From an uncultured Lentisphaeraceae bacterium (GTDB lineage Bacteria > Verrucomicrobiota > Kiritimatiellia > RFP12 > UBA1067): a stretch of 58,542 bases of DNA. Below the pieces are notes generated by a model that made no database searches, was not told the DNA's origin, and saw nothing but the letters and a program-made list of their open reading frames with translations. The stretch lies in the NCBI GenBank assembly GCA_964390795.1, contig CAYMLQ010000002.1, positions 1 to 58,542 on the forward strand, read 5' to 3'. Made by a program: the position numbers and the translations under genes. This document shows, piece after piece, positions 10,577-44,121 of this stretch. Each line of letters opens with the position of its first letter. Position 1 is the stretch's first letter.

Positions 10577-10644
10577 GTTTGGAGAATAACAAAATCGCGA
10601 GGTTGGTCAAACGAAAATCGGTATACGCGATAAGGAGGCTCAAA

Positions 10645-11970
10645 ATGGGAAATGAAACAGGATCTAAACCGGGGGCAGAGGGTGTGGCGTCGGAAGCGTG
10701 GCAGCCGCCGTGGGCGCGAGCCCAGGCCCAGGCCCCGGCCGCTGAGCCGGTGGCAGCCGAGAGCGTGGTGCAGCAGCCGCTGACGGCCGCGGATCTTTTC
10801 CGCGAAACGAAGCCGTCGCAGGAGCAGGCGGGTGCCGCGGATACGTTTGAGGTGCGGGATGCGGGCGGTGCGCACGGGCTGCACCTGCATGCGCTGCTCA
10901 AGCAAAGCATCCAGGCCAAGGCGTCGGATATCATGATCGCGCCGGGGCGCAGGCCCAGCGTGCGGGTTGACGGCGACATGACGCCGATGGCCGACTTTCC
11001 TGTGCTGACGTCCGCTGACGCCGACACGATCTTGCGGGCGATCCTGAAGGAAAGCCAGTTGCGCACGCTGGATTCGGAGTGGGAGCTGGACTGCGCGTAC
11101 GAGCTGGACGGATATCGTTTCCGCGTGAACGTCCACAAACAGTTGCGAGGGCTGGCGGCGGTGTTCCGTCTGCTGGGCGAAAAGATCCTGACGCCGGAGC
11201 AGATCGGGCTCAGCGATCCGATCATCCGGCTGACGGATCTCGAGCAGGGGCTGGTGCTGGTCACCGGGCCGACGGGCAGCGGCAAGACCACCACGCTGGC
11301 GACCATGATTGACAAGATCAACCGGGAGTGCGCGTATCATATTCTGACCATTGAAGACCCTGTCGAAATCGTGCATGAGGAAAAGTACAAATGCGTGATC
11401 ACCCACCGTGAGCTGGGCGCGCACACCAAGAGCTTCAACAACGCCTTGCGCTCGGCCTTGCGCGAGGCGCCGGACGTGATCCTCGTGGGCGAAATGCGCG
11501 ACTTGGAGACGATCGGTCTGGCGCTGACGGCGGCGGAGACGGGGCACTTGGTGTTCGCGACCCTGCACACGCGCAGCGCGGCGGAGACGATCAACCGCGT
11601 GATCGATGTGTTCCCTTCGGCGCAGCAGCCGATGGTGCGGTCGCAGTTGGCCAGCTCGCTCAAGGCCGTGGTCAGCCAGAAACTGCTGAAGAGGCTGCCG
11701 AAAGGGCGTGTGGCGGCGCGCGAGGTGATGCTCGGGACGAGCGCGATCGCCAACCAGATCCGCACGAGCAAGACGCACGAGATCTACTCGTCGATCCAGT
11801 CCGGCTTCGAGCTCGGGATGCTCACGCTGGAGCAGTCGCTGGCGCAGCTCGTTCTGGACGGGGTGGCCGATCACGGTGAGGCGTTCGACTGCGCGAACGA
11901 CAAAGAGGTCTTCGAGAGCTATGTGACGAGTCTGGGCGCGAAGCGCAAAGAAGCCGCGAAAAGGAAATGA
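10645..11970 (+). CDS. pilT: PilT/PilU-family pilus retraction ATPase with an N-terminal extension of about 95 aa
   Basis: taaggagg lies 7 nt upstream of the ATG at 10645. Motifs: Walker A GPTGSGKTT, Asp box TIEDPVE, Walker B DVILVGEMRD, His box TGHLVFATLHT. Confidence 0.9.
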   Translation: MGNETGSKPGAEGVASEAWQPPWARAQAQAPAAEPVAAESVVQQPLTAADLFRETKPSQEQAGAADTFEVRDAGGAHGLHLHALLKQSIQAKASDIMIAPGRRPSVRVDGDMTPMADFPVLTSADADTILRAILKESQLRTLDSEWELDCAYELDGYRFRVNVHKQLRGLAAVFRLLGEKILTPEQIGLSDPIIRLTDLEQGLVLVTGPTGSGKTTTLATMIDKINRECAYHILTIEDPVEIVHEEKYKCVITHRELGAHTKSFNNALRSALREAPDVILVGEMRDLETIGLALTAAETGHLVFATLHTRSAAETINRVIDVFPSAQQPMVRSQLASSLKAVVSQKLLKRLPKGRVAAREVMLGTSAIANQIRTSKTHEIYSSIQSGFELGMLTLEQSLAQLVLDGVADHGEAFDCANDKEVFESYVTSLGAKRKEAAKRK

Positions 11971-24191: not shown

Positions 24192-24950
24192 TCACTCGGC
24201 CCCGTTCCCTTCGTTCCAGTAGCCTTTGCGGTTGTAATGCTGATGCAGGCTGTCTTCAAATTCGCGGGTGAGCAGCGACCAGTCCGTGTATTCGGGCGAG
24301 CGCTTGATTTCATCGCGGGTCAGGGTGACGAAGACTTTCGAATCATCCCAGCTCACGCGCTCGATCCACTGCGGCGAAGCCAAGACCTTTTTGCCAGGCC
24401 ACCAGTTCAGGGTGTCGATGACGAGGTAGCGGATCGCCCACGTCTCGTCGTCGACGATGAAATCGGACACGTGGCCAAGCTCGCCGTCCGTCGCCTGGAT
24501 GTGATAACCCCGCACCTCGTGCGTGCTGCGCAAATGGGGGTCCCACGCCTTCTGTTTTTGGACGAGTGACGTCCACGCTTCGCGGTCGCGCACGATGTAG
24601 GGATAGGAGCCCCACATGTCTGATCCGCCCCAATACATCGGCCAGCCGTAATACCCGTAGTAGGCCTCCTCGAATTGCAGCGAGACGGGTTTGTCGCTGT
24701 CCAAAGCCGGACTGTCCTCGATCTGCTTTCGCGTCAGATTGACGACAATGTGCTTCTCGTTCTTCTTTACAGCGACCAGCGCGTAGGGCGAAAGCAGAAC
24801 CTGCCTGCCGGTCAGCCAGTGGCCCGTGTCGGCGACCAGATAGCGGACGGTCCAGTGCTGGTCGTCGAAGTAGAATTGCTTGGCCTTTCCGATGTCTCCG
24901 TCAAGGCAGTGTAGGGCGTAACCTTTGAGCGCTTCGGTTTTGATAAGCAT
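24192..24950 (-). CDS. PRC-barrel domain protein (two PRC-barrel repeats)
   Basis: aaggag RBS. Two repeats of the type LKGY.L...DG.IG.V.DF..D...W.IRYLV.DT. ...W..G..VL.SP. Confidence 0.85.
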   Translation of the reverse strand: MLIKTEALKGYALHCLDGDIGKAKQFYFDDQHWTVRYLVADTGHWLTGRQVLLSPYALVAVKKNEKHIVVNLTRKQIEDSPALDSDKPVSLQFEEAYYGYYGWPMYWGGSDMWGSYPYIVRDREAWTSLVQKQKAWDPHLRSTHEVRGYHIQATDGELGHVSDFIVDDETWAIRYLVIDTLNWWPGKKVLASPQWIERVSWDDSKVFVTLTRDEIKRSPEYTDWSLLTREFEDSLHQHYNRKGYWNEGNGAE

Positions 24951-25054
24951 AGGACTCCTTGGGTTGGTTGAGTTTCGGTTGGTGTACGGGTTCGCCCTTT
25001 GAAAGGCGCGTTACGTTGAATCATTTTGCGTCTCTCCCGTTGTCACTCGTTAAG

Positions 25055-25098
25055 AATGTTATACGGGAGCGAACGATTATGCCATGGGGTAAAACCCC
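25055..25098 (-). promoter_or_regulatory. Promoter-like site P-a (GGR-N5-CCCCAT-N22-TAnnnT) upstream of the PRC-barrel gene
   Basis: Minus strand reads GGGGGTTTTACCCCAT, then 22 nt, then TAACAT. About 100 nt upstream of the start at 24950. Confidence 0.6.
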
Positions 25099-25186
25099 CA
25101 CGGGCGAAGTTAGGATTTAGGATTTTGGAGTTGATAATGCGCACCGTGATCTGTCAGCAGCGCGGGTTTTCGATAGGCGTTGAAGT

Positions 25187-25229
25187 AGGATTAAACCCCA
25201 TCGCCTAACGTTAGGGTGCGGGCTATACT
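25187..25229 (+). promoter_or_regulatory. Promoter-like site P-g upstream of the entericidin-like gene
   Basis: Plus strand reads AGGATTAAACCCCAT, then 22 nt, then TATACT (25224-25229). The ATG lies 30 nt downstream. Confidence 0.6.
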
Positions 25230-25258
25230 TTCTTAAAAGCAAACAAAGGAGGCTCGAG

Positions 25259-25387
25259 ATGAGAAAGCTATTCATGGTTCTGGCGCTGTTCGGTGTGGCC
25301 GTGTCTGTTACCGCGTGCAATATGCTCCGGGGGGCGGGACGGGACATCGAGAAGGTCGGCGATTCGATACAGGATGCTGCCAGCTAG
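25259..25387 (+). CDS. Entericidin A/B-family small lipoprotein (42 aa; below the ORF-track cutoff)
   Basis: aaggagg RBS. MRKLFMVLALFGVAVSVTACNMLRGAGRDIEKVGDSIQDAAS has a lipobox (VTAC) and the entericidin pattern CN..RG.G.DI...G..I..AA. Confidence 0.8.
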   Translation: MRKLFMVLALFGVAVSVTACNMLRGAGRDIEKVGDSIQDAAS

Positions 25388-25486
25388 CTGCGCGAGCGCC
25401 TGGTGATCGGCGGCTGGGTGGCGATGTGGCGTCCCCAACCACATTTCCCTTCTCTGATGAGGTTCCTGCCGCTTTCACCTGAACGC

Positions 25487-25639
25487 TTACGGAGCCGCGC
25501 TCGCAACCGTCGCAGGGCTCGTAGGCGAAGTGAAGCGAATGCTGGCCCATAACAAGGAAATGGCCAGCAGGCCGCATCCGAAAGTAAGGGCGGTCGCAAT
25601 CAGAATATTCACGATGTGCTCGCTTTGGTTGAGTGTCAT
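25487..25639 (-). CDS. Possible small membrane protein (50 aa)
   Basis: aaggaaggg RBS-like sequence upstream. MTLNQSEHIVNILIATALTFGCGLLAISLLWASIRFTSPTSPATVASAAP has one hydrophobic helix. It lies downstream of promoter-like site P-d. No homology recognised. Confidence 0.3.
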   Translation of the reverse strand: MTLNQSEHIVNILIATALTFGCGLLAISLLWASIRFTSPTSPATVASAAP

Positions 25640-25769
25640 GGTCGTTCCCTTCCTTTTCGATTTCAACTACCTTGGAGGCGAAGCCAGCCCTCTTCAGAGC
25701 CGCCGGTTTAAACGACACCACACTGTTACGATTAGCTTTCACGTGAACGAAATCCTTTGTGTTTGTATT

Positions 25770-25812
25770 AGATTAAGCGGATGCGCCCGTCGATTCTATG
25801 GGGTGTAACCCT
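25770..25812 (-). promoter_or_regulatory. Promoter-like site P-d
   Basis: Minus strand reads AGGGTTACACCCCAT, then 22 nt, then TAATCT. It points toward the small ORF at 25487-25639. Confidence 0.5.
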
Positions 25813-26277
25813 ATGTCATATAACTGCCAAACGCATTCGCATCGACTGCGCGTATCACCCCCGGCATCCAATTCTTCAATCTTGGCTGCGGGAAGGATGC
25901 GGGATAAAATGTTGTCGATTACCGACAACCCCGTGCTCGTTCTGACAGGCCGGCTTGAGCGGAACGGCCGCGTAAGGGCCGCAGAAGCGGGTGCCGATGG
26001 CATTCTCAACAGCCCCGTTGACGATCTTGAGCTGCTCGTCCAGGGCAAGCAGACGCTTGCCCCTCCCGTGTGTTTTGTGCCCGTCTTATGGTCAAAAAAT
26101 ATTTCGGCGGTGGTATCCGAGCGGCGGAATCCCCGTAACCCGCCGCCGGCTCCCGGTATCCGCTTTGGATTTATCCGCGCTAGAACGGATTACGATATGG
26201 AGGTAAAGCAGACTCTATTTGCACGGAATACGCCGCAGCAGTTCGACTAACAGCGTATCCGGCGACGTGTGGGACTA

Positions 26278-26559
26278 TCAGACCTTGACCACGCTGTTAC
26301 GGCTTCCATACTCATTCGCAACGGACTCCGCGCAGGCGGGATCCAGGCGCCAGACGCCGTCGATGATGAACTTGTATTCGTGGAGCCCCGGCAGAAGCTG
26401 CACCTGCGCTTCATGACGTCCGGTGTCCGGATTGTACCGCAGCGGATCCGCGGTGGGGTTCCAGTTGTTGAACGTGCCCACGACATAGGCCTGACAGTCC
26501 GCCTTCGCTGCCAACTCGAAACGCGCGCGTTTCAACAGCGCTTCAATTGAGTTCTTCAT
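26278..26559 (-). CDS. Stand-alone CBM48/AMPK-beta-like glycogen-binding-module protein
   Basis: gaggag RBS. YVVGTFNNWNP....L......G.HEAQVQLLPGLHEYKFIIDGVW..DP is the CBM48 signature. Confidence 0.8.
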   Translation of the reverse strand: MKNSIEALLKRARFELAAKADCQAYVVGTFNNWNPTADPLRYNPDTGRHEAQVQLLPGLHEYKFIIDGVWRLDPACAESVANEYGSRNSVVKV

Positions 26560-26580
26560 CTGCTCCTCGTTTACGGAGAA

Positions 26581-26958
26581 TCATATCCGAACGACGCTGT
26601 TGGGCTCGCCTGTTGCGTCAGGGACGCAGTGGGGGCACCTGGCATCCCTTTGCCAGACGCCGTTCACCACGAACTTGTACTCGTATGTGCCTGCTGGTAG
26701 CAGCAGGGTCGCCCGGAAGACGCCGTCCTCCGGACGGTGGTTCAACGGATGCGTATACGGGTTCCAGCCGTTAAAGGTCCCGGCGACGTAGACCTTGCTG
26801 CTCGGGTCTGCGGCGACCTCGAACTCGACCGCTTTTCCCGTCTCGAGGGCCATCAGCCGCATCAGATAGTTGAGATACGAGGATGACTTGCGCGACCTTG
26901 TTCGGGTTGAACCTGTCGCTTGGGCTTGCGAGGGCCTTTCAGTCGTGGCGGTTGGCAT
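26581..26958 (-). CDS. Stand-alone CBM48-like protein with a basic, low-complexity N-terminal extension
   Basis: aggag RBS. VYVAGTFNGWNP..HPL....EDGVFRATLLLPAGTYEYKFVVNGVW. Paralog of the downstream gene. Confidence 0.8.
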   Translation of the reverse strand: MPTATTERPSQAQATGSTRTRSRKSSSYLNYLMRLMALETGKAVEFEVAADPSSKVYVAGTFNGWNPYTHPLNHRPEDGVFRATLLLPAGTYEYKFVVNGVWQRDARCPHCVPDATGEPNSVVRI

Positions 26959-27009
26959 AACAAGTCTCCTATCAGTTGCGCAAAAGTTTTACACATTCAA
27001 ATCGGCTGA

Positions 27010-27052
27010 ATGGTAAGCCCCTCGACACGTTTCTGCAATGGGGTCATTTCCT
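27010..27052 (-). promoter_or_regulatory. Promoter-like site P-f upstream of the CBM48 gene pair (weakest upstream half-site)
   Basis: Minus strand reads AGGAAATGACCCCAT, then 22 nt, then TACCAT. About 50 nt upstream of the start at 26958. Confidence 0.5.
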
Positions 27053-27068
27053 ACCTTGAGCGGCGGCT

Positions 27069-27455
27069 TCAGACCTCCAGCGACAGCGCATCGGTCGGGC
27101 AGCACTGCATCGCGTGCAGGCAGGTCGCTTCAAGGCGGGGAGGCACGGAGGTCATTCTGACGTGCGCACGGTCGCCGGACAGCTCGAAGACCTCGGGACA
27201 GGTACGCGTACACTGCCCGCAGCCGGTGCAGAGGACCGGGTCGATCTTAGCCAGCAAAAAGGAGGCCTCGTCAGCGCCGGCGCCGGGCAACGGCGCCGGC
27301 TCCTCAGCCTTTGGCGGCGCGTTCTCACGCTCCAGAAAGCGCTCGAACAGATGCCTGGCCTCGGACGAGCGGGCTGTCCGGGCCATATGCTGCGCATGCG
27401 ACACCAGACGTTGATCACAGGTTTTCGCTTCCGTAATGCGAAAGGTCAAGGGCAT
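27069..27455 (-). CDS. Protein with a C-terminal single-cluster ferredoxin domain and an N-terminal domain of unknown function
   Basis: aggagg RBS. C-terminal IDPVLCTGCGQCTRTCPEVFEL.......CLHAMQCCPTDAL carries the CxxCxxC...CP pattern. Confidence 0.75.
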   Translation of the reverse strand: MPLTFRITEAKTCDQRLVSHAQHMARTARSSEARHLFERFLERENAPPKAEEPAPLPGAGADEASFLLAKIDPVLCTGCGQCTRTCPEVFELSGDRAHVRMTSVPPRLEATCLHAMQCCPTDALSLEV

Positions 27456-27511
27456 GGCCTACCTCCTAATGAGAGCTTCTTCTCTCGCTTAACGTCTGGT
27501 AATTTTCTAAC

Positions 27512-27554
27512 ACGATACACGATCAGTGACCCCGGCGGTATGGGGAGTTCCCCC
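27512..27554 (-). promoter_or_regulatory. Promoter-like site P-e upstream of the ferredoxin-domain gene
   Basis: Minus strand reads AGGGGGAACTCCCCAT, then 22 nt, then TATCGT. About 55 nt upstream of the start at 27455. Confidence 0.6.
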
Positions 27555-27650
27555 TAGCCCGCGCCGGAGACGGGGTGCGCGGCAACCAAGCCCGCCGCCC
27601 GGGATTCAGGAGCAAACGTCCGCAGGGCACGGGGAACGGCGGCGTGGACT

Positions 27651-27789
27651 GGCGGCGGGTTACGGGGAACCCAGGACGACACGACACGCGCATAGCAAGG
27701 GACGCCTCCCCGCAGGCGTCCGCAGGGCACAATGACTCCCTGACCTCCCACCACTGACCTCCGACCACTGACCTCCGACCTCCGAAGTT
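27651..27789 (+). repeat. Intergenic repeat element copy 2: same 22-nt head, then a heptamer tract ending in CCGAAGTT
   Basis: Head 27651-27672 is identical to 24044-24065, followed by similar gacacgRcacgcg. Heptamers: tgacctc ccaccac tgacctc cgaccac tgacctc cgacctc cgaagtt (27741-27789). Confidence 0.8.
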
Positions 27790-27820
27790 ACCGGCGAGCC
27801 CGCCGGAGGTCAGTGGTCGG
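27761..27820 (-). terminator. 16-bp perfect stem that includes the stop codon of the last kinase gene
   Basis: ccgaccactgacctcc (27761-27776) pairs with ggaggtcagtggtcgg (27805-27820). The loop contains a second small hairpin, ccggcg/cgccgg. Confidence 0.5.
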
Positions 27821-28925
27821 GCGGCAGCTCGACGGTGAAGACCGCGCCGCGCGGCTTGCGCTCCTCCACGTAGATGCGGCCGCCATGCGCCTCCGCCACC
27901 ATGCGGCAGAAGGTGAGGCCCAGGCCGGTCTGGCGCGCAGCGAACGCTTTCATTTTGACGCAGGCGAATTTGTCGAAAATCGCCTCGCGAAAGCCCACCG
28001 GAACGCCCGGCCCCTCGTCTTCGACATGGATCTGGCAGACGGGCTGTTTGCCGTCGGCGGGGCAGACGCGCAACTGTACCTCGCTGTTTTCCGGGGAGAA
28101 CTTGACGGCGTTGGACAGCAGGTTGTCGATCAGGCGCACCAGCAGGCCTTCGTCCGCGTCAACCAGGCAAGGCGCTTCGGGCACCTCGATTCGGATGCGG
28201 ATGCGCTTCGCCTCGGCGTGCGGAAGCAGGCTCAGCGCGGCGGTGCGAGCCCGCTCGGTCAGATCCACGCGGGTGCGGTTCAGCTTGAAGCCCGTGTGCT
28301 CCATGCGCGAGACTTCGAGCAGGTCGGTGACAAACCGGTCGGCCAGATCCACCTGACTGCGGATCGTCCGGGCAAGCGCACGGGCGGGCGGGGGGACGTC
28401 GAGCGCCTCGATCCGCAGCGCGGACAGCATGATTCCCAGGAGCGGGTTGCGGAGGTCGTGAACGATCATGTCCGACAGCTCTTCCCTCAGGCGCAGCAGG
28501 GCGTTGCGCTCGTCATAAAGCCGCTTCAGGCAGAGCGCGTTGCGCACGCGCAGCAAAGCCTCCTCGGTGTCGATCGGCTTGGTGATGAAGTCGTTGGCGC
28601 CGCTCGCCACGCCTTTCAGACGGTCGGCCCGCTCGTGCAGCGCCGTGACCAGCAGCACGGGGATGGGGGCGGTGAGGGCGTCGGCCTTCAGGCGGCGGCA
28701 GACCTCCATCCCGTCTAGCCGGGGCATCATCACGTCCAGCAGGATCACGTCCGGCTGCGACGCGGCGACCTCGCTGAGGGCTTCCTCGCCGTCGGCCGCA
28801 TCGAAGACGGTATAGCCGTGCATGGACAGGATGTCGCAGAGGAGCCGACGGCTCATCTCGTCGTCATCGACGACCAGCACGCGGCCCGCTGCGGCGGCAG
28901 CGTGAACGTCTGTCTTTGCAATCAT
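27810..28925 (-). CDS. Hybrid response regulator-histidine kinase (REC + HisKA + HATPase_c)
   Basis: REC: VLVVDDDEMSRRLL...DVILLDVMMPRLDG. H-box: VHDLRNPL. Followed by an HATPase_c-type C-terminal region. Confidence 0.9.
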   Translation of the reverse strand: MIAKTDVHAAAAAGRVLVVDDDEMSRRLLCDILSMHGYTVFDAADGEEALSEVAASQPDVILLDVMMPRLDGMEVCRRLKADALTAPIPVLLVTALHERADRLKGVASGANDFITKPIDTEEALLRVRNALCLKRLYDERNALLRLREELSDMIVHDLRNPLLGIMLSALRIEALDVPPPARALARTIRSQVDLADRFVTDLLEVSRMEHTGFKLNRTRVDLTERARTAALSLLPHAEAKRIRIRIEVPEAPCLVDADEGLLVRLIDNLLSNAVKFSPENSEVQLRVCPADGKQPVCQIHVEDEGPGVPVGFREAIFDKFACVKMKAFAARQTGLGLTFCRMVAEAHGGRIYVEERKPRGAVFTVELPPDH

Positions 28926-29320
28926 CGGTTCGCGGTATCCCCGGCCGGGGCCGTGCCGCCCAAGCAGGCCTCGATACGCCGCAGCAGTCCGGGCACGTCA
29001 AACGGTTTGGTGATGCAGATGTCGCAGCCCGCGGCCAGAATCCGGGCGGCGTCTCCGGCCATGGCGTAAGAGGTCAGCGCCCAGGTCGGGATATCGCGTG
29101 TCAGCGCGTCACCCTTCAGCGTCCGCGTCGCCTCGTACCCGTCCATGAGCGGCATCTGGATATCCATCAGAATCAGGTCGGGCAGGTGTTCCCGCGCGCG
29201 CTTGACACCCTCGATCCCGTTGTTCGCCGAGAGCACCCTGTAGCCCTTCACGGTCAGCAGGTCGACGAGCAGCTTCCTGTTCCGCAGGTCATCCTCCACA
29301 ACCAAAATCGTGTGCTTCAT
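28922..29320 (-). CDS. Single-domain CheY-like response regulator
   Basis: ILVVEDDLRNRKLL...DLILMDIQMPLMDG...TSYAM. ATGA overlaps at both ends. Confidence 0.9.
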   Translation of the reverse strand: MKHTILVVEDDLRNRKLLVDLLTVKGYRVLSANNGIEGVKRAREHLPDLILMDIQMPLMDGYEATRTLKGDALTRDIPTWALTSYAMAGDAARILAAGCDICITKPFDVPGLLRRIEACLGGTAPAGDTANR

Positions 29321-32106
29321 GAGAGCACCTCTGCCGTGTGCGACTGAACCGCAGACAGGGCACCAACGGGAATCGCAAACGTGAAGCGGCTACCGTGTCC
29401 CTCGCCTGCGCTTTCCACCCAGATGCGGCCCCCGTGCAGGCCCACCAGTTGCCTGGCCAGGCTGAGCCCCAGACCGGTGCCCGGCGTCTTGTCCGCAGCG
29501 CCCTGCTTGACCTGATAGAACGGCTCGAAAATATGTTTCTGATGCTCCGCCTCGATGCCGATGCCGCTGTCGGCCACCGACACTTCGAGCTGCGGGACGG
29601 GCTCGTCCGTCAGCCGCGCCTGCACGCGGATCAGGCCGCCGTCTGGCGTGAACTTGGTCGCGTTTGAAAGCAGGTTGTAAAGGATCTGTTTAAGACGGCG
29701 CTCGTCGGCCGTCACCATCAGGCTGCGGACGGGGTCTGACATGTCGAAGTCCAGCCGGATGCCGTGCTTGAAGCAGCGCTCCCTGACGAGGACGCGGCTG
29801 CTCTCCAGCAGATCCCCCGCGTTGAAGCGCGTGAAGGCGGGCTCCATCTTGCCGGCCTCGATTTTGGACAGGTCGAGGATGTCGTTGATCAGGCTGAGGA
29901 GGTGCCGGCCGCTCTCGTAGACGTCGGTGACATACTCTTTCTGCTTGGCGGTGAGCGAGCCGAAGTACTCGTGCTCCAGCACTTGGGAAAACCCCATGAT
30001 CGCGTTCAGGGGCGTGCGCAGCTCGTGGCTCATCGACGCCAGAAAGTCCGACTTGGCCTGGCTGGCGCGCTCCGCCTCGACTTTGGCCTGGCGCAAGGTC
30101 ATCTCCGTCTCCTTGCGCTGCCGGATGTCGCGGATCACGCTCAGGAGCATCTCCTGCCCTTCGATGACCACGCCACGGGAGCTGACCTCGACCGGCACGC
30201 TGCTGCCGTCCTTGCACACGTGGACGCTTTCAAAGAGGAAGCCCTGAACCCGCGCCCGCTGCATCTGGAGATCCACGACCTCCGCATCCTCTTGCCGCAG
30301 CGCGTGGATCCGCAAGTTGAGAAGTTCCTCTTTGGGATACCCGTAGAGTTCCACGGCGGCCTGGTTGGCCTCGATGACGTGGCCTTCCAGATCCACCAGC
30401 AGCAGCGGGTCGCGGGCATACTGGGCGATCAGCTCGTAGCGGGCCTTCACCGCCTCGGCGAGCTTGAGCCCCGTGATGTCCTGAGTGGTGCCGAAGCCGC
30501 CCAGCAGCGTGCCGGCGGAGTCGACCTCTAGCTCGGCCCGCTCGCGAACCCACTTGACGGCGCCGCCGACGAGGATGCGGTGCTCGACGTCGTAAGGCTC
30601 GCCGCGCAGCGCAGCGGCCCACTTGGCGTCCACATACGCCCGGTCGTCCGGATGGATCGTGCTAAGGAAAGTCTCGTAGGTCAGCGGCGTCTCTTTCGGG
30701 ACACCGAAAATACGACAGTTCTCATCCGACCAGAGGAGTTCGTTGCGCTGGAGGTTCAGGCGCCAACTGCCGACGTGCGCCACGGACTGGGCGCGGGCCA
30801 AATCTTCCCGGCTTTCGCGCAGCACCTCGAGATCCCTCTGCCGCTGCATGGCCACTGCCACGTGCTCGGCGACGGCGTCCATCAGCGAGAGGTCATCGGC
30901 GCTGAAGGTTGCCCGCTTGCGCGAGCCAAACGAAAGGGTCCCGAGCAACCGGTTATGCGACAGCAGCGGTTGGCAGCTATACGCCTGCACGCCGTAGCCG
31001 GCCAGCAGCACCATGCGCGGGTCGTTGGCGTGCGGGATGTTCTCGAAGACCAGGCGCCGTTGCTCGTCGAACACGCAGGTGACGCCGCAGACGCAGGCGT
31101 TGACCTGGCCGATCTTTTCCGCATCGGCAGTCGGGAAGCCGGCGCAGGCGTTGAGCAGGAGGCGGCCTGACGGCTCGTCCGCGAGGAAGTTCAAAAACAC
31201 GTCGCACGCCAAGAATTCCATGACCGCCGTGCAAAGTTCGTTGATGACATGGCGGGGCTCGTCGGCAGCCAGCAGGCGGTGAGCGGTGTCGGCGAGGAGT
31301 TCCTCGCGGCGGCGGCGGCGCTCTAGCTCGCGCTCTGCGGCCAGGCGCGCGGTGATGTCGTTGGCGAGCACGAGACGGCAGGGCCGGCCGCTGAACGGGA
31401 TGGAGCTGGCCGTGATCTCGACGTCGATCGGCGTGCCGTCTCTCTTCTGGTGGACAAGAACGCCCACGTGGACGTTCTTCAGCCCCTTCTGGCTTTTGAT
31501 CACAGCCCGCGCCCGCTCCCGCTCTTCCGCCGGGCGGATGTCCAGCACCGTGAGCGCAAGGAGTTCGTCGCGGGTGTAGCCGTAGTGACGCAAGGCTGCG
31601 GCGTTGACGGCGAGGAACCGGAACGTCTCCTCGTCGAAGACCCACATCGGGTTCGGGTTGGCCTCGAACAGCAGGCGGAACTGCGCCTCGCTGGCGCGGA
31701 GCTGGCTCTCCGCTTGCCGCTGCTGGCGGCGCACCTCGGCGTCGCGCAGCTCGCGGGCGATCGCCGGGTTCAGACGGGTCAACTTGTCCTTGAGCACGTA
31801 GTCGTGCGCGCCCGCCTTCATGACCGCCACCGCCTGCTCCTCGCCGATGACGCCCGACACGACGATGAACGGCAGGTCCACGCCGGACTGCTGCACAAGC
31901 GCCAGGGCCTCCGCGCCGTTGAACAGCGGCAGGCGGTAGTCGCTGAGCACGATGTCCCACGGCTCTTCGGCCAGGGCGGCGCAGAGTTCGGCCGCGGTCT
32001 GGGCGCGCCGGTAAGCAGGCTCGTAGCCGCCCTGCCGCAGCGTGCGCAGCAGCAGCAGCAGGTCGTCGTCATTGTCCTCGACGATCAGGACGCGCAGGGT
32101 GCTCAT
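29317..32106 (-). CDS. Hybrid sensor kinase: REC-PAS-GAF-PAS-PAS-HisKA-HATPase_c
   Basis: N-terminal REC ([10 protein letters not shown]...[12 protein letters not shown]). H-box [17 protein letters not shown]-box [13 protein letters not shown]. The PAS/GAF calls come from sequence character and are approximate. Confidence 0.9.
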
Positions 32107-32570
32107 GGGTTGTTCCTGAACTTCGGGGCCGCGACGTTGATCACCAGCCAGTAGAGGCCGAGTTGGCGGACCGCCTCGGTGAACGCGGTGAAATCGATCG
32201 GCTTGCGCACGTAGCTGTTGCAGCCCTGGGCGTAGCTTTCGGCCACGTCGCGGTCCTCAAGCGACGAGGTCAGCATGATGACCGGCAGCAGCCGGGTGCG
32301 CTCGTCGCCGCGGATGCTGCGCAACACTTCCAGCCCGTCCACCTTGGGTAGCTTCAGATCCAGCAGGATCAGCTCCGGCACCTCCTGCGTGTCGCGCCCG
32401 GCGTACGCGCCGGTGCCGAACAGGTAGTCGAGCGCCTCGACGCCGTCGCGGGCGATCACCACGTCGTCGCGGATGTTGTTCTTCTTCAAGGCGCGCAGCG
32501 TGAGCGCCTCGTCGCCAGGGTTGTCTTCCACCAGCAAAATCGTCCGTTTGTCGGTGCCAAGTGAGTTCAT
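32103..32570 (-). CDS. Single-domain response regulator (Rcp1-like)
   Basis: [14 protein letters not shown]...[13 protein letters not shown]...KP.DF. The ATG at 32570 has aaggag 6-7 nt upstream. An alternative ATG at 32594 would give an ATGA overlap with the upstream kinase. Confidence 0.85.
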
Positions 32571-32590
32571 GGGATGCTCCTTGTTCGCTT

Positions 32591-35500
32591 TCATTGTGCC
32601 GCTTTCACCGGCTCGGGCGCAAGGGTGAAATAGAAGGTCGCGCCGCGTCCGGGGGCCGCGTCGGCCCAGATCCGCCCGCCGTGGCGCTGGATGACGCGAG
32701 CCACTGTGGCCAGGCCGATACCGGTGCCGGGAAACTCCTGCGCCGTGTGCAGCCGCTGGAAGGCCTTGAAGAGCTTGCCCGCGTACTGCATGTCGAAGCC
32801 GACGCCGTTGTCCCGCACGAAGAAGACGGGGGGGGGCGGAGATCGGAGGTCGGAGGTCGGAGATCGGAGGTCGGAGGTCGGAGATCGGAGGTCGGAGGTC
32901 GGAGATCGGTGATCGGAGGTCGGAGTATCGTTAGCATCCGTCAGCGCGCCGATCTCCGACTGCTGACTGCCGACTGCCGACCTCTGACCTCCGACCTCCA
33001 CCCCCACCTCAATGACTGCCGCGGGGGTCTTCCCCGTGAACTTCCAGGCGTTCGCCAGCAGGTTGAAGAGTGCGGCATACCACAGCCGGGCGTCGCCCAC
33101 GGCTGTCAGGCCCGGCGCGATGCGGATGTCGACGCTGCGAGCGGGCTCGCGTTCTTGGAGCTGGCGGACGGCCGCACGGGCCAGCGCCGTCAGATCCACC
33201 GGCTCGCGGCGCATCTGGTCGCGGGTCACTCGCGAGAGGCGGAGCAGGTCGTCGATCAACTGGTCCATCTGCCGGCAGCCGTTGCGGACGCGGTTCAGGT
33301 AGTCACGCCCGGTGTCGTCGAGGCGTTCGCCGTAGTCTTCGAGCGCCGCCTGGCTGAAGCCGTCGATGCTCCGCAGGGGGGTGCGCAGGTCGTGCGAGAC
33401 CGAGTAGCAGAACGCCTCCAGCTCGCGGTTGGCCGACTCCAGCTCGGCGGTGCGCTGGAGCACGCGCTGCTCGAGCTGCTCGTTCAGGCTGCGGAAGGCC
33501 GTCTGGGCTTGGATCAGGCCGTCGACATTGATCGCGGTGCCGAACCAGCGCACGATCTCGCCGGCCTCGTTGCGGATCGGGCGTGCGCGCACCTTGAACC
33601 ATTCGTAGACGCCGTCCTGTCGGCGGACGCGGTATTCGAGGTCGTAGGGTTCGCGTCCTTCGACCGCCGCGCACCAGGCCGCGTACGCGCGCGGGCGATC
33701 GTCGGGATGCAGCAGCCTGTTCCAGCCGTCGCCCACATGCTCGGCCATCGGCACGCCGGTGAACTCTACCCACTGCTGGCTCTGGTAATCGCAGTACCCG
33801 TCCGGCCGCGTCGTGAAGGTCATGCCGGGAACCGATTCGAGGGTCTGCCGGTAGAACGACTCGCTCTCGCGCAGCGTCGCGGTCAGGCGGTCGCGCTCCG
33901 CCAGCAGGCGCGCGAGCTTGACGTTGCTGAAGCCGAGCTGGGCGATCATGTCGGCCAGCTTGAGGAAGAACGCCACGCCGCGTTCGACGGTCTCACGCTT
34001 CAGGCGCGGGACGCGGTCCAGCGCGGCTAAATACGCGTTCTCGTCGAAACCGTAGGTCTGGGCCTGGGCGCGGAACAGCTCGCGGTCCGCGGTCTCGCCC
34101 TCGAAGAAAAACTGGCCGGTAAAGATGTTGCCCACGTGCTGGCCGGCCACGAAGATAGGGGTGGACATGTCCCAGAGGTTGTTCTTGCACTTGTAGAGGC
34201 GGTGCTCGCCTGCGGCTAGGCCGGCGGATAGCTCGAGGTCGCTTTCAATGCAATGGCGGCAGGCGGCGGCATGCACGCGGTGGAAGCGGGTGCAGATGTC
34301 CTGCCAGCCTGCGCCTACCAGCACTCGGCCCTTGAGGTCGACGATGGCCACCGGGACTTGGGTCAGCGGGTAGAAGTCGTCCATGAGCCGCTGCAGGGCA
34401 GCGGTGTCCAACAGGTCGGACAGGTCGAGAACGCCCAGGTCGCCCTCGGGCTCGAGCACGCTCGCCAGCTTGCGGCGCACGCGCTCGTCGCTCTCGCGCA
34501 GCGCCTCCTCCGCCTGCTTGCGCACGGTGATGTCGCGGTCGGATTCCAGAATCAGGACATGGCCGTCGGCCGCATGGGTGGCGGTCTGGCGGCTCTCGAT
34601 GGTCACGCGCCGGCCGTCGCGTGTCGTGTGCGTGAGTTCGCCCGCCCAGTGGCCGGTCCGCGCCAGTTGCTCGTCCTTTTCATCTACGCCCGCGCCCTCC
34701 GTGCGCAGCAGCACGTAGGTGCGCTGCCCAAGCGCCTCGGCTGCGGGCCAGCCGTACAGGGCGGCGGCGCCCTGGTTCCAGAAGCGGATGACGCCGCCCA
34801 GCTCGCGCACGATCAGCGCCTCGTTGGCGTGGTTCATCAGCTCGGACTGGTGGCGGAGCTGCGTCTCGGTTTCGCGCCGCGCGGCGTCGGCGCGGTTGAG
34901 GGTCAGGGCGATCCACCAGACCACCGCGAGCAGCGAAAAGAGCATCATCAGCACGAGCAGGCCCGCGCCGACGGGAGCGCCCCATACTCCGGTTCGCTCG
35001 CCGGACTCGTGCAGCCAGCCGAGCAGGACGGGCAGAAGGATGGCCGCAGGCAGGAAGCGCCGCGCCAGTTGGCTGCCAGGGCCGACGCCGGTCAGCACGC
35101 GGGCCAGCCCGTCTTCGCGGGCGAACAGCAGGCCTACGGAAAGCGCCAGAAAGCCCGCCGCCGTATGCAGCGCCATGCTCGTCGCCCCTGCAAACTGGTA
35201 GAGCGGCTTCACGTCGTAGAGATAACCGAGCAAGCCCGTCAGGCTGCACAGGGCGATGGCCAGCGTCAGCGCCTGCTGCGGCCAGCGGCCGCGCGGAGCG
35301 GAGAGCAGCAGGAAGGCCGCGCCGCTCAGCACGAAGCAGAGCGCGGTGACCGGAATCATTCGCCCCGGGTAGAGCGTGTGGGCATCTTGAGCGTCGGCGA
35401 ACAGAAGCTGGTCGAGGCCGAAGTCCAAACCGGAGGCATATTCGGCCAGTGTCAGCCCTGCCACGGCGCACACGAGCCCCGTGCAGAGCAGAGACAACCG

Positions 35501-36244
35501 CTCCGGAGCGCGAAGGCGTTCCGCTCCCGTGGCGGCAGGGTGGAGCGGAACGCCTTCGCGTTCCGGCTTTCCGCGCAGCAGCAGCGCCAGGCCCGCCAGC
35601 AGGAAGCAGAGCGCGGTGTTGGCCTTCATCGTGCCCAAATCCGGGGCGATGCGCTTGAGCGCCTCTACGTCGAAGAGCCAGCCCAGCAGCACCGCCGCGC
35701 CGAGTCCGGCAACCGCCGCGCCGACCGCGGCCGGCATGAGCCGCAGCCACGCGCCTGCAGCGGCAGAAGGCGCTGTGCCCGCGCGCTCGCGGTCGCGCAG
35801 AAGGCGCTGCATCTCGCGGGCGATGATCTCCGCGCGGGCAGGGTCGATCAGCTCGACCTGCTGGCGCAGCGCCGCCTCCGCCGCCTGCGCCGAGGCCGCC
35901 TCGACGTCGGCTTGCGCCCGCGCCGCGCGCAGCCGCGTGCTGACCCAGCCCACGTAAGCGCTGGTGGAAAGCAGGATCGCCGCTCGGACCGCGACGGCGA
36001 GAGTGACCTCAATACCGGGCGGGTCGATGAAGAACCATTCGATCAGCACGATGCCCAGAACCGTGCTGACCAGCCCCGGGCCCGCACCGAGCGTCACCGC
36101 GACCAGCATGATGGCGGGGAAGACCGTGATAAAAGCCACGTTCGTGCCGATCTTCGGCTCCAGCGCCAAGCGCAGCCAGACCGCGACCAGCGCACACAGC
36201 ACGGCGAGCCCGTAGCGCGCGATTCTGTGAGTGGGCGCCTTCAT
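32591..36244 (-). CDS. Large membrane sensor histidine kinase (DUF4118-like N-terminus, multi-TM region, PAS, PocR-like, PAS, HisKA, HATPase_c)
   Basis: N-terminal KdpD-type TM segment. PocR-like block [24 protein letters not shown]-box [22 protein letters not shown] and GTGIGLATV boxes. Confidence 0.9.
32838..32999. repeat. Palindromic heptamer array, 162 nt (54 codons), in frame inside the HATPase_c domain
   Basis: The plus strand has 12 units of ggagatc/ggaggtc, including 3 perfect 21-nt super-units. A spacer follows, then 7 complementary units: gatctcc gactgct gactgcc gactgcc gacctct gacctcc gacctcc. Confidence 0.9.
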
Positions 36245-38937
36245 CCGTTCGCTCCTGCTTCGCTTTGCGCACCCTCGCCTCCGAGCGTGAAGAAGAAGGT
36301 CGCGCCCTGCCCTAGAGCAGACTCGAACCAGACGCGGCCGCCATGGCGGTGGATAACGCGCTGCACCGTGGCCAGGCCAATACCGCTACCGGTGAAATCC
36401 GCGGCCGCGTGCAGCCGCTGGAAGGGCGTGAACAGCTTGTCGGCATACCGCATGTCGAAGCCCACGCCGTTGTCGCGCACGAAGAAGATGGGGGAGGTCG
36501 GAGGACGGAGGTCGGAGGTCAGAGGTTGGGATTCGGAGATCGACGATCGGAGATCGGCGATCGGAACTCTGACCTTAAGCAATGACTCTCCGCCCTCCGA
36601 CCTCTGACCTCCGACCTCTGACTTCCGATCTCCGACCACAAGCCCCATCTCAATCACGGCATCGGCCCGCTGGCCGGTGAACTTCCAGGCGTTCTGCAGC
36701 AGGTTGGTCAGCGCCGCCTGCAGCAGGACCGGATCGCCGGCGGCGCTCAGGCCCGGCGCGATGCGGACGGTGACGGCGCGCGCGGGCTCGGCCTGGCGCA
36801 GGTCGCTGATGACCGCGTGAGCCAGCGCGGTGAGGTTCACGGGCTGGAGCCGCATCTGGGCGCGCGAGAGGCGCGAGAGGCGCAGCAGGTCGTCGATCAG
36901 GCGGGCCATGCGCTGGCAGTTGGAGCGGATGCGGTTCAGGAAGTCTTGGCCGGCCGCGTCGAACCGCAGGCCGTAATCCTCCAGCAGGGCCTGGCTGAAG
37001 CCATCCATGCTGCGCAGCGGGGCGCGCAGGTCGTGCGAGACGGAGTAGCAGAAGGCTTCGAGTTCGCGGTTGGTCGCGGCAAGTTCCGCCGTGCGCGCCT
37101 GGACGCGCTGTTCGAGTTCGGAGTTGAGTTGCGTGAGGGCGTGCTCGGCCTGCAGGCGCTCCAGTTCGCCCGCCGCGCGCACGGCCACCAGTTGCAGGAG
37201 CGATTCCGCCATACGGGTGTCTGCCAGCGGCTGCCGCCCGATGACTGCGATCAGGCCGATGGGCTTGCCCTGCGCGCTCCAGAGCGTGGCGCCTAGGTAA
37301 CTCTCCGCGTGCAAGCTCTGAAGCACCTCGTCCTTGGCAAAAAATGTACAAACGTCTTTTGGAAAGCAGCAGATCCGCTTGCCCACCACATCGCCGCAGG
37401 GGGTGTCTTGCAAGGTGTAGGAGACGTTGTCCTCAAACCTGCCGTCGTGAAAGACGGCCAGCGTCTGAGCCGTGAGCAGTCCCTCCTCCAGCCGGTCGAT
37501 GCAGACAAAGTCCATGGCGAGCGACTGGGCCAGGTAGCGCGCCAGGTCTTGGAAAAAGCCTTCGCCTGAAGCGCTGGTGCCGCACTGCCCCAGGAACCGC
37601 AGGACGTCCTCCGTGCGCTTGCGCTCGGTGATGTTGAAGTGGGAGATGACCGCTCCTTCGGCTCTGTTGCCGCCAATGGGCGTGACGGTCATCAGAAACC
37701 AGCGCTGCTCTTCCGGGCTGTGGCAGGGGTACTCCAGGGTAAACTGCTTGGAGACGCCGGCGAGCACGGCTTCGATGCCGGACAGCGCCTGGGCGGCGTC
37801 GGCGTCGTCTGTGGCGCAGGCGCGGCGGCAGGCTTCCAAGTAATTGGCTCCCACCTGCACCGAGGAGGCGTTCGAGGCGTCGTTCTCGCGTGCGAATTGG
37901 GCCCAGGCTTCGTTGACCGCCACGACACGCCCGTTCCGGTCGGTCACGGCGATATGTGCGGGCAGGGCCTGCAAGGTTTGCCGGTTGAGCTCCTCGCTGG
38001 CCCGCAGGCGCTCCTCTACCTGGAGTTTCGCCACCGCCACCGCGAGGTGGCCGGCCAGGCGCTCCCACAGCGAGAGGGCGTCAGGCGTGAAGGCGTTTTT
38101 GCGCCAAGCGTTCAACTGCAAGAAACCCAGGCGTGACGGGCCGTCATGCAGCGGCAGCAGGGCGAGCGAACCGTACCCCTCCTGGATGCAGGGGTAGTCG
38201 CCTCCCTGCTTCAGTCGGATGCCCACCGCGTCGCAACCGGCATGTTTCTTGAAGAACAGGGCCGATAACCGCAACAGCTCTGCGCTGCCCTTGCTCAGGT
38301 TGACCATGCGCAGGAAGGCGACGGTGAGGTCACGTTCGCGCTGCGAGCGCCGGTTCTCGTTGAGATGGCGCAAGGCGCAGAGGCCGAAGGCCACGTCTTC
38401 CGCCAAGTCGGAAAGCAGACTGCATTCGTCCTCCGTAAACGGATCAGGAAGCCGCGAATACAGCGTCAACGCGCCGATCGTCGCGCCATTTGAGGATAGC
38501 GGAAAGGCGATCGAAGAGGCGTAGCCCCGGCGCAGCGCTTCTTCGCGCCAAGGAACAAATGCGGGATCGGTGAGCATGTTGCGGCACTGGCAGATCTTAC
38601 CCGAGCGGATTGCCCGTCCGGTCGGGCCGCAGCCTCGCTCTGTGTCCGCCCAGGTGAGACTGAGGGTCTCGAGATAGCCCTCTTCAAACCCCGAATAAGC
38701 GGCAGGGCGGATGGTCTTGCCCGCATCGTTTTCCGCAAACCCGATCCAGACCATGGCGTGCCCGCAGTCTTCTACAATGATCCTGCAGACTTCTCGCAGC
38801 AGCGCCGGCTCGTCTTGCAGACGCGCCAGCGCCTTGCTGCCGTTGCGCAGCGCCCGGAGCGTACGGTCGAGCGCGAGACGTCGGGTGTCGCTATTTTGCG
38901 CAAGCTCTCTCGCTTCTTCAACCATTCGGATACCCAT
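36241..38937 (-). CDS. Cytoplasmic sensor histidine kinase (GAF-GAF-PAS-GAF-HisKA-HATPase_c)
   Basis: H-box SHDLRAPLRSMDGFSQ. DNGVGF and GSGIGLATV boxes. The C-terminal catalytic module is paralogous to the downstream kinase. No TM segments seen. Confidence 0.9.
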   Translation of the reverse strand: MGIRMVEEARELAQNSDTRRLALDRTLRALRNGSKALARLQDEPALLREVCRIIVEDCGHAMVWIGFAENDAGKTIRPAAYSGFEEGYLETLSLTWADTERGCGPTGRAIRSGKICQCRNMLTDPAFVPWREEALRRGYASSIAFPLSSNGATIGALTLYSRLPDPFTEDECSLLSDLAEDVAFGLCALRHLNENRRSQRERDLTVAFLRMVNLSKGSAELLRLSALFFKKHAGCDAVGIRLKQGGDYPCIQEGYGSLALLPLHDGPSRLGFLQLNAWRKNAFTPDALSLWERLAGHLAVAVAKLQVEERLRASEELNRQTLQALPAHIAVTDRNGRVVAVNEAWAQFARENDASNASSVQVGANYLEACRRACATDDADAAQALSGIEAVLAGVSKQFTLEYPCHSPEEQRWFLMTVTPIGGNRAEGAVISHFNITERKRTEDVLRFLGQCGTSASGEGFFQDLARYLAQSLAMDFVCIDRLEEGLLTAQTLAVFHDGRFEDNVSYTLQDTPCGDVVGKRICCFPKDVCTFFAKDEVLQSLHAESYLGATLWSAQGKPIGLIAVIGRQPLADTRMAESLLQLVAVRAAGELERLQAEHALTQLNSELEQRVQARTAELAATNRELEAFCYSVSHDLRAPLRSMDGFSQALLEDYGLRFDAAGQDFLNRIRSNCQRMARLIDDLLRLSRLSRAQMRLQPVNLTALAHAVISDLRQAEPARAVTVRIAPGLSAAGDPVLLQAALTNLLQNAWKFTGQRADAVIEMGLVVGDRKSEVGGQRSEGGESLLKVRVPIADLRSSISESQPLTSDLRPPTSPIFFVRDNGVGFDMRYADKLFTPFQRLHAAADFTGSGIGLATVQRVIHRHGGRVWFESALGQGATFFFTLGGEGAQSEAGANG
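36493..36633. repeat. Degenerate palindromic heptamer array, 141 nt (47 codons), in frame at the same HATPase_c loop
   Basis: Left arm: ggaggtc ggaggac ggaggtc ggaggtc agaggtt gggattc ggagatc gacgatc ggagatc ggcgatc. After a spacer, right arm: gacctct gacctcc gacctct gacttcc gatctcc. Confidence 0.85.
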
Positions 38938-43389: not shown

Positions 43390-43433
43390 ATGCTAATGAT
43401 TTTGGCGGGATTTGCCTATGGGGTAAACTCCCC
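43390..43433 (-). promoter_or_regulatory. Promoter-like site P-b upstream of the ferredoxin gene
   Basis: Minus strand reads GGGGAGTTTACCCCAT, then 22 nt, then TAGCAT. About 65 nt upstream of the start at 43322. Confidence 0.6.
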
Positions 43434-43451
43434 AAAACCTCCTCATTTCTC

Positions 43452-44114: not shown

Positions 44115-44121
44115 GTTGCAA

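Follow-up and report, generated by a model that had tools for sequence, protein, structure and literature searches.

A phased inverted-repeat box in the stress-gene promoters of Verrucomicrobia-type bacteria and its candidate NarL-type regulators

Seven genes on a contig from the metagenome-assembled genome of an uncultured Lentisphaeraceae bacterium (CAYMLQ010000002.1, assembly GCA_964390795.1) share a real, conserved promoter design, in which an inverted-repeat box containing CCCCAT is followed at a fixed distance by a −10 hexamer of the form TAnnnT. The full contig was analysed, and its 58,542 bp (64% G+C) are referred to here as the window. The seven sites are best explained as activator-dependent promoters of one stress regulon, which would be bound by a response regulator of the NarL/FixJ type, with a probability of roughly 0.6 for this explanation.

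The exact pattern CCCCAT-N22-TANNNT occurs seven times in the window, compared to 0.08 expected occurrences and a maximum of two in 100 dinucleotide-preserving shuffles. This bears out an earlier note on the same DNA, which had claimed that TAnnnT stands exactly 22 nt after CCCCAT at seven of seven sites and that this is not chance. By itself, CCCCAT is not enriched in the window (19 copies, with 24 expected), and seven of these 19 copies have a TAnnnT hexamer at exactly +22; given that CCCCAT is not over-represented, the signal lies in its coupling to the hexamer. When the sites are aligned, all seven show GG 8 and 7 nt ahead of CCCCAT, so the GGR-N5-CCCC core proposed earlier also stands. 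The sites fall into a group of five (25056-27557) and a group of two (43390-44167), and all of them lie between genes and point towards a gene whose start is 7-105 nt past the hexamer (Table 1). The open reading frame (ORF) listing and Pfam agree with the earlier observation that every site faces the adjoining gene, and the gene assignments hold as well, Pfam giving a PRC-barrel protein, an entericidin, a small ORF, a CBM48 pair, two ferredoxins and an Fe/Mn superoxide dismutase (SOD).

A position weight matrix (PWM) trained on 33 sites, all from other genomes and none from the window, recovers six of the seven sites at 18-27 bits and the seventh, P-e, at 8.4 bits, with no other match above 8 bits in the rest of the 58.5 kb. 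Among 20 shuffles of the window, 19 contain no match above 12 bits and one contains a single match. P-e, the weakest site of the window, belongs to a box subtype in which T replaces A before CCCC.

The full element consists of a TRGGGT-N3/4-ACCCCATRG box with the −10 hexamer 22 (sometimes 23) nt downstream. The box is an inverted repeat of 15-20 bp that ranges from partial to perfect, in keeping with the partial palindrome described before. When the first C of CCCCAT is numbered 0, conservation covers indices −12 to +8 and then only positions 28, 29 and 33 of the −10 hexamer; no second tandem box or UP-like element is conserved from 70 nt upstream to 90 nt downstream. The box comes in two forms, the common one being GGTAGGGTTACACCCCATAG, which corresponds to TRGGGT-N3-ACCCCA. 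The second, found in many loci, is a perfect 18-bp palindrome with a 7-4-7 arrangement, ATGGGGTG-WW-CACCCCAT (ATGGGGT-NNNN-ACCCCAT). Neither form departs from ACCCCAT in the gene-proximal heptamer, whose position relative to the −10 hexamer is fixed as well; the distal half and the spacer are the variable parts. The would-be −35 region (indices 5-10) conserves T-R-G only. Consistent with the poor −35 conservation noted previously, a scan with the sigma-70 consensus finds no canonical −35 and picks up none of the seven window sites, which are therefore not ordinary consensus promoters.

The same geometry is found outside the window. Among occurrences of GG-N6-CCCCAT in related loci, TAnnnT peaks at offset 22, with 21 cases compared to 0-2 at other offsets. 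In a set of 74 metagenomic boxes that were not selected for a −10 hexamer, nAnnnT stands at offset 22 in 41 and at offset 23 in 17 (58 together), and every other offset has between 1 and 5 instances, providing an unbiased confirmation of the promoter geometry.

The position of the transcription start can be approached through the SOD gene, whose ATG lies 7 nt past the −10 hexamer of P-7 (44114-44127). An identical layout of box, N22, TATCCT, 7 nt and ATG precedes the SOD orthologue in locus L082 (about 9862-9890). The recurrence of this spacing suggests that the SOD mRNA is probably leaderless, with a predicted start site 7-8 nt past the hexamer. Measured from such a start, the box would be centred at about −43 to −45 and its proximal edge would lie at about −33 to −35. 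Class II activator sites overlap or abut the −35 and are centred at about −41.5 to −43.5.

Conservation of the box follows lineage rather than gene content, as illustrated by the PRC-barrel gene. Hundreds of genomes across many phyla encode its product at about 66-76% identity. Among 80 sampled PRC-barrel loci, the box is found upstream of the gene in 18 of the 21 labelled as belonging to the Planctomycetes-Verrucomicrobia-Chlamydiae (PVC) group, with 34 boxes in 230 kb; of the 59 loci from other phyla, 4 contain boxes, with a total of 5 in 585 kb. The distance to the PRC-barrel gene is about 140 nt, and loci with a box in this position include nearly all those labelled Verrucomicrobiota or Lentisphaeraceae, one Sedimentisphaerales locus and one Phycisphaerales locus. 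The PRC-barrel gene is thus widespread and its cis-element lineage-specific. Together with the source names of the regulator homologues, this distribution of the box points to the PVC group, and probably to Verrucomicrobiota, as the origin of the contig.

The wider content of the regulon was examined with the pattern TRGGGTNNNACCCCATRG-N20-TANNNT, which retrieved at least 120 metagenomic loci (619 kb). Rescanning the first 80 of these with the core matrix yielded 161 sites, and many loci contain three to six boxes. Across roughly 200 non-redundant sites in total, for which the metagenomic ORF calls are crude, the box precedes a textbook set of general stress genes, in line with the stress regulon that had been suggested from the window alone. 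Pfam searches of 136 first downstream ORFs identified BON (9), HisKA_3 (7) and Ice-binding-like (4) domains, followed by DUF3309, ferritin, AMPK1_CBM, OsmC, DUF883 and YflT with three each, and CsbD, rubrerythrin, DUF3185, MlaA and fatty-acid desaturase with two each. CBM48 genes recur downstream of boxes outside the window, as do PRC-barrel genes, with one in L104 (backed by its N-terminal sequence) and two in L034 (assigned by reading). A class I aldolase and an ATPase beta-like protein, both assigned by reading the N-terminal sequence, are also preceded by boxes. Boxes lie inside stop-free stretches of at least 150 codons in 39% of cases compared to 75% for random positions, a difference in the direction expected of sites outside genes but a noisy measure of little weight owing to spurious ORFs in high-GC DNA. 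Genes for BON/OsmY, CsbD, YflT, DUF883/ElaB, OsmC, Dps/ferritin, entericidin, PRC-barrel proteins and SOD are typical of the stress regulons of RpoS, SigB and EcfG. Judged by these downstream genes, the box marks a large putative general-stress and quiescence gene set in Verrucomicrobia-type bacteria.

The candidate regulator is encoded next to SOD, in divergent orientation and with box P-7 between the two genes. It is a NarL/FixJ-family response regulator composed of a receiver and a GerE helix-turn-helix domain, and it defines a clade termed here clade S. Orthologues with 63-80% identity occur in four loci (L082-L085, by the synteny of the ferredoxin gene), and the genes found in synteny encode SOD, the 61-aa ferredoxin, ferritin, YceI, CBM48, rhodanese, an ADH_N_2 oxidoreductase and large PAS/GAF/PocR kinases. 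At these orthologous loci, boxes precede the ferredoxin, ADH_N_2 and rhodanese operons, and the ferredoxin orthologues with a box are those of L082, L083 and L084. The closest solved structures to the DNA-binding domain of the window regulator are EsrB/SsrB (best), EL222, VraR, DevR and NarL; the regulator matches DevR (E=4.6e-33) no more closely than VraR or NarL.

Two sister clades are also connected to the box. In loci selected by the motif only, tblastn identified regulators of clade H, which are 48-59% identical over their full length to the window regulator (64% for one partial match in L105) and lie directly downstream of HisKA_3 kinases; sister regulators are found in at least ten motif-selected loci. 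The clade H operons run in the order box, RsbU_N+HisKA_3 protein, RsbU_N+HisKA_3+HATPase_c kinase and regulator. Of 13 such RsbU_N-HisKA_3 kinase-regulator operons, 10 have a co-oriented box upstream, usually CCCCATAT...GATnnT, which suggests that these operons are autoregulated. Clade K, chosen by protein similarity alone, shows 57-61% identity and has boxes in three of four loci. Its members are coupled to PAS-HisKA_3 kinases, with KaiC-KaiB alongside in two of the four loci: in L208 (315-4403), the KaiC-KaiB genes immediately precede those of a PAS-HisKA_3 kinase and a regulator from this family, and in L211 (5647-7912), the KaiC-KaiB, PAS-HisKA_3 kinase and regulator genes are close together. 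This arrangement suggests that a KaiBC-type timer or energy sensor may feed the regulon.

The recognition helices provide a further connection between regulator and box. Clades H and K carry KTVEKHRxxLM and clade S carries KT[TAS]EKHRYSLM, so that the helix of clade S is nearly the same as that of its box-autoregulated, kinase-linked sisters, with a slight difference (KT[TAS]EKHRYS compared to KTVEKHRQH). A more distant NarL paralogue near boxes in L034, L143 and L172 carries KTVEYHR. The base before CCCC is A in 64 of 72 sites that were unconstrained at this position, and six of the eight exceptions (T or C) sit in clade S loci before redox genes, including P-e and P-7. The subtype of the box therefore covaries with the clade of the regulator, which supports the link between them.

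The mechanism proposed from these observations is as follows. Each promoter combines an ordinary TAnnnT −10 hexamer and the lack of a functional −35 with an inverted-repeat box at the position that a −35 would occupy. A phosphorylated dimer of a NarL/FixJ-type response regulator would bind the box, the regulator belonging to a family labelled Verrucomicrobia/Verrucomicrobiota by source names and represented in the window by the clade S gene. The proximal subunit would then contact sigma region 4 or the alpha subunit of RNA polymerase and recruit the polymerase in the manner of DosR. In the window, the regulon would include the PRC-barrel, entericidin, CBM48, ferredoxin and SOD genes, and elsewhere it would extend to BON/OsmY, CsbD, YflT, DUF883, OsmC, ferritin, a group-2 sigma factor and the kinase operons of the regulator itself. 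The start-site positions, regulator binding, activation rather than repression and the inducing signals are all inferred from sequence.

Precedents for such an element exist among NarL-family regulators. The DevR/DosR box of Mycobacterium tuberculosis is a palindrome with a GGG core in each half, and at every mapped promoter the edge of the proximal Dev box is 33-34 nt away from the start site (PMC3177182). At hspX, where the −35 is suboptimal, the centre of the DosR box lies at −43.5, and cryo-electron microscopy revealed that the dimer contacts sigma region 4 and alpha (PMC13486717). The box described here resembles that of DosR in its length of about 20 bp, its GGG/CCC core in each half, a predicted proximal edge about 33-34 nt from the start, a predicted centre near −43.5, a suboptimal −35 and a normal −10. 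The two regulons are also alike in serving stress or quiescence, in including a ferredoxin and in the autoregulation of a two-component operon, which is suggested here by the boxes of the sister-clade operons. In contrast, the half-site is TRGGGT here and GGGACT in DosR, and a single box is present with nothing conserved in the 58 nt further upstream, where DosR promoters always have at least two tandem boxes. Furthermore, the regulators are related at the family level only, the phylum is different, and the kinases are RsbU_N-HisKA_3 or KaiBC-linked PAS-HisKA_3 proteins, unlike the GAF/haem kinases DosS and DosT. Departing from both the Dev box consensus and the tandem arrangement (PMC3177182), the sites do not represent the DosR/DevR regulon proper.

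A second precedent is SsrB, which recognizes an 18-bp palindrome of 7-4-7 layout: a single heptamer suffices if it is correctly oriented, and degeneracy is allowed in the spacer and the remaining half (PMC2837388). The candidate regulator is likewise of the NarL family, the perfect boxes ATGGGGT-NNNN-ACCCCAT are also 7-4-7, and one heptamer is kept in fixed orientation to the gene as the other heptamer and the spacer degenerate. The systems differ in heptamer sequence and in that SsrB sites do not lie at one fixed promoter distance; SsrB governs the virulence island SPI-2 (Salmonella pathogenicity island 2) of Salmonella, whereas the box described here would govern a stress regulon. SsrB acts largely by counter-silencing. 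Further GerE-type sites, which serve here as a lead only, include those of NarL (7-2-7, TACYYMT), NreC (TAGGG-N4-CCCTA) and GerE (TRGGY) and the lux box at −42.5; they are alike in their TRGG-type half-sites with G/C triplets and in class II positioning, and differ in the order and orientation of the halves, spacing and regulons. In gene content, the regulon is of the same kind as those of RpoS, SigB and EcfG/PhyR. Unlike their sigma-specific −35/−10 promoters, it has a transcription-factor-type palindrome before a housekeeping-type −10. By analogy, the element may work like a class II site of the DosR/SsrB type, and the class II activator reading offered in the earlier note gains support from the linked NarL-family regulators together with these precedents.

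Several observations weigh against activation by a NarL-type regulator. The regulator gene of the window has no canonical box and −10 in its own direction in its upstream region, so autoregulation is seen for the sister clade only, which is absent from the contig. Several NarL-type paralogues, including the KTVEYHR clade, occur near boxes, and the window regulator is therefore only one candidate for the binding protein. The spacing between half-sites varies between N3 and N4, which is unusual for a rigid dimer, and the group-2 sigma gene is a recurrent member of the regulon that could add specificity. In addition, the linkage statistics are inflated because stress genes and regulators cluster in islands, and the pattern used for the metagenome scan fixes part of the motif, biasing the sample toward the common box form.

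Some of these points favour a class II site bound by another, unlinked transcription factor, with the NarL-type regulators being mere members of the regulon. The linkage of the regulator is circumstantial, the regulon includes varied regulators (double-receiver proteins, kinases and a sigma factor), and the regulator gene in the window lacks a box of its own. This explanation is nevertheless unlikely, given that HisKA_3 kinases with GerE-type regulators are the only DNA-binding family to recur beside the boxes and that the 7-3/4-7 GGG/CCC palindrome centred near −43.5 fits regulators with a GerE-type helix-turn-helix. The covariation of box subtype with regulator clade likewise speaks against it.

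The boxes could also be read by a dedicated alternative sigma factor, a group-2 protein of about 350 aa whose own gene lies behind a box and which, alone or with a helper, would recognize the block as an extended or displaced −35. Group-2 sigma-70-family genes (RpoD/RpoS-like) do lie directly behind boxes in two unrelated loci, L160 (1200-2348) and L211 (3904-4956); their products are 67% identical and score below all NCBIfam equivalog cut-offs. T-R-G is conserved at the −35 position, many stress sigma factors are autoregulated, and general stress regulons elsewhere are controlled by sigma factors (RpoS, SigB and EcfG), all of which count in favour of a sigma factor. However, the −35/−10 spacing of the sigma-70 family is 15-20 nt, a range exceeded by the 22 nt that separate the invariant CCCCAT from the −10. 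An inverted repeat is superfluous for sigma region 4, the −10 is of the housekeeping type, and a sigma gene is found in two loci compared to at least 13 kinase-regulator operons, with none on the window contig. A group-2 sigma factor alone cannot account for an inverted repeat whose edge lies 22 nt from the −10. The unusual sigma −35 region raised earlier as an alternative is thus weakened and appears rather improbable, and the group-2 sigma factor may instead act at a lower tier of the response or be one of its co-determinants.

It is very unlikely that the box is an operator overlapping the −35 region from which stress would release a repressor. Palindromic operators commonly overlie promoter elements, and the sign of regulation cannot be given by sequence. 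Here, however, there is no usable −35 to mask, and the rigid phasing of 22-23 nt to the −10 over hundreds of unrelated genes is activator-like: repressor sites usually drift in position, and activators that touch polymerase are rigidly phased.

Finally, CCCCAT is a hallmark of the −10 element of Escherichia coli sigma-32 (RpoH), and the chance that the sites are heat-shock promoters of the form CTTGAA-N13-17-CCCCATnT is negligible, as pattern tests ruled this out: TTGA-N14-18-CCCCAT has no match in the window, nothing is conserved further than 12 nt before CCCCAT, the second base after CCCCAT is G rather than T in 93% of sites, the phased TAnnnT 22 nt downstream would be left unexplained, and the gene set contains no chaperones or proteases. 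The EcfG/PhyR promoter, GGAAC-N16/17-CGTT, was ruled out in the same way, with no match in the window. Known structured RNA families were excluded as a source of the motif by Rfam scans, which returned nothing at the gathering score over the whole window and a single chance-level match (E=0.66) over 24800-27700.

A full-text literature search found no description of the motif, the regulon or the regulator, or of any verrucomicrobial stress regulon or promoter motif. A NarL-family regulator at a class II box is of a well-known kind, and the box, the regulon and their lineage distribution appear to be undescribed. Soils, peat, freshwater and guts all harbour abundant Verrucomicrobiota, yet the literature searched holds almost nothing on the regulation of their stress and dormancy genes. 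A tentative generalization, held at somewhat less than even odds, is that Verrucomicrobiota and some of their PVC neighbours govern general stress and quiescence through one family of NarL-type regulators acting at a 7-3/4-7 box near −43.5, rather than through an alternative sigma factor. If so, paralogues of this family, among them the orphan beside the SOD and ferredoxin genes, would be fed by different sensor modules, such as RsbU_N-type kinases (each behind a kinase-like paralogue in which no ATPase domain is detected) and KaiC-KaiB-coupled PAS kinases, a redox sub-regulon would be set apart by a single base of the box, and the system would constitute a fourth architecture of general-stress master regulation beside RpoS, SigB and EcfG/PhyR.

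The box also has practical uses. As it can be scanned for, the whole stress regulon becomes predictable in any genome or metagenome-assembled genome of the lineage, together with a short list of candidate master regulators and sensors that includes the unexpected link to KaiBC. For annotation, the box predicts transcription starts and identifies dozens of small stress ORFs that lack annotation as genuine genes. Moreover, the PRC-barrel gene, present in many phyla with the box almost exclusively in PVC bacteria, offers a clean example of regulatory rewiring.

Table 1. Promoter sites and associated genes in the window (coordinates in bp; exact match refers to CCCCAT-N22-TANNNT)
Feature	Position	Strand	Exact match	Box	−10 hexamer	PWM score (bits)	Gene served or annotation
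P-a	25056-25101	(-)	25056-25089	GTGGGGGTTTTACCCCATGG (25082-25101)	TAACAT (25056-25061)	27.4	PRC-barrel gene; back-to-back pair with P-g
P-g	25184-25229	(+)	25196-25229	AGTAGGATTAAACCCCATCG	TATACT (25224-25229)	24.2	Entericidin-like gene; back-to-back pair with P-a
P-d	25770-25815	(-)	25770-25803	CATAGGGTTACACCCCATAG	TAATCT (25770-25775)	26.3	Small membrane ORF
P-f	27010-27055	(-)	27010-27043	GGTAGGAAATGACCCCATTG	TACCAT (27010-27015)	19.4	CBM48 gene pair
P-e	27512-27557	(-)	27512-27545	CTAGGGGGAACTCCCCATAC	TATCGT (27512-27517)	8.4	128-aa ferredoxin-domain gene
P-6	43390-43435	(-)	43390-43423	TTGGGGAGTTTACCCCATAG	TAGCAT (43390-43395)	18.1	61-aa ferredoxin gene
P-7	44122-44167	(-)	44122-44155	AGTAGGATTAATCCCCATGG	TAAGCT (44122-44127)	21.9	SOD gene; box lies between it and the divergent regulator gene
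PRC-barrel protein, 252 aa	24192-24950	(-)					Pfam PF05239
Entericidin EcnA/B-family lipoprotein, 42 aa	25259-25387	(+)					Pfam PF08085
Small hydrophobic ORF, up to 59 aa	25487-25666	(-)					No family match
Two CBM48/AMPK1_CBM glycogen-binding-domain proteins, operon	26278-26958 (26581-26958, 26278-26559)	(-)					Pfam PF16561, PF02922
128-aa protein with C-terminal single-cluster 4Fe-4S ferredoxin domain	27069-27455	(-)					Pfam PF13370
Hybrid histidine kinase and receiver protein cluster (PAS, GAF and PocR sensor domains)	27810-38937	(-)					Pfam; between the promoter groups
61-aa 4Fe-4S ferredoxin	43137-43322	(-)					Pfam PF13370; syntenic in L082-L085
Fe/Mn superoxide dismutase	43452-44114	(-)					Pfam PF00081, PF02777; ATG at 44114 backed by orthologue alignment
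NarL/FixJ-family response regulator, receiver and GerE helix-turn-helix (clade S)	44249-44935	(+)					Pfam; candidate regulator, inferred

The cluster of kinases between the two promoter groups has no box upstream according to the PWM scan. Similar PAS/GAF/PocR kinases flank the orthologues of the regulator, and those of the window are possible signal inputs. In the clade H operons, the first protein is a kinase paralogue of about 250 aa in which Pfam does not find the ATPase domain (paralogue and kinase at 10040-10831 and 8895-10043 in L207; also L139, L107, L167 and L102), and this paralogue may be a built-in antikinase, a phosphatase or a module resembling a partner switch. A YtxH gene comes after the sigma gene of L211.

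Back-to-back pairs of boxes, 60-110 bp apart and serving divergent genes, are frequent and are found in the window (25084-25201), in L068 (5787/5848) and in L101 (2572/2631), with further pairs in L150 (1420/1490) and L097 (124/213). In these pairs, each promoter has its own box and no palindrome is shared. Four box-controlled genes (in L126, L136 and others) encode secreted Ice_binding (PF11999) proteins, which hints that protection against freezing or desiccation may belong to the regulon in peat and soil populations.

The PRC-barrel protein was confirmed in at least 587 loci and occurs in more than 8000 protein clusters, in lineages including Verrucomicrobiota, Deltaproteobacteria, Chloroflexi, Bacteroidota, Methylobacter, Firmicutes and bins labelled Thermoplasmatota and Patescibacteria. 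So wide a spread suggests that this uncharacterised stress protein is either under extreme constraint or often transferred horizontally. Boxes in L016, L061, L065 and L080 lie in contigs binned as Ignavibacteria, Acidobacteriaceae and Desulfuromonadales. The box is in the usual promoter position before the PRC-barrel gene in L016, L061 and L080, and the L065 site, at a distance of about 5 kb, has the look of a chance occurrence. Off-lineage boxes reflect either mis-binned verrucomicrobial contigs or horizontal transfer of the gene with its promoter. Among verrucomicrobial loci (L004, L008, L022, L034, L037, L050, L061, L064 and others), the 5' leader of the PRC-barrel gene is conserved over about 100 nt as …GATCGCGGYGCAA…GCTGTCAGCCGGACGCC…AACAAAAACGAAACGCAAAGAACGAAAGAA-ATG, with an A/C-rich tail, and RNAalifold found no supported structure in it (-1.07 kcal/mol, 6 pairs). 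The leader in the window (24951-25055) differs from this sequence.

Between P-d and the end of the CBM48 operon, about 460 bp (25816-26277) contain no recognisable gene, and a 150-aa ORF at 25798-26250 has no Pfam match. The stretch includes a sigma-70-like promoter match at 25882-25910 (+) and a terminator-like hairpin at 25911-25929 (-). Candidates for its content are a small RNA, a small ORF and a decayed gene. Unrelated to the motif, the far end of the contig encodes an IS200-like Y1 transposase, an ORF6N-domain protein and a 1024-aa protein with a middle domain resembling hydrazine synthase alpha (49008-50039, 57294-57890 and 51300-54374).

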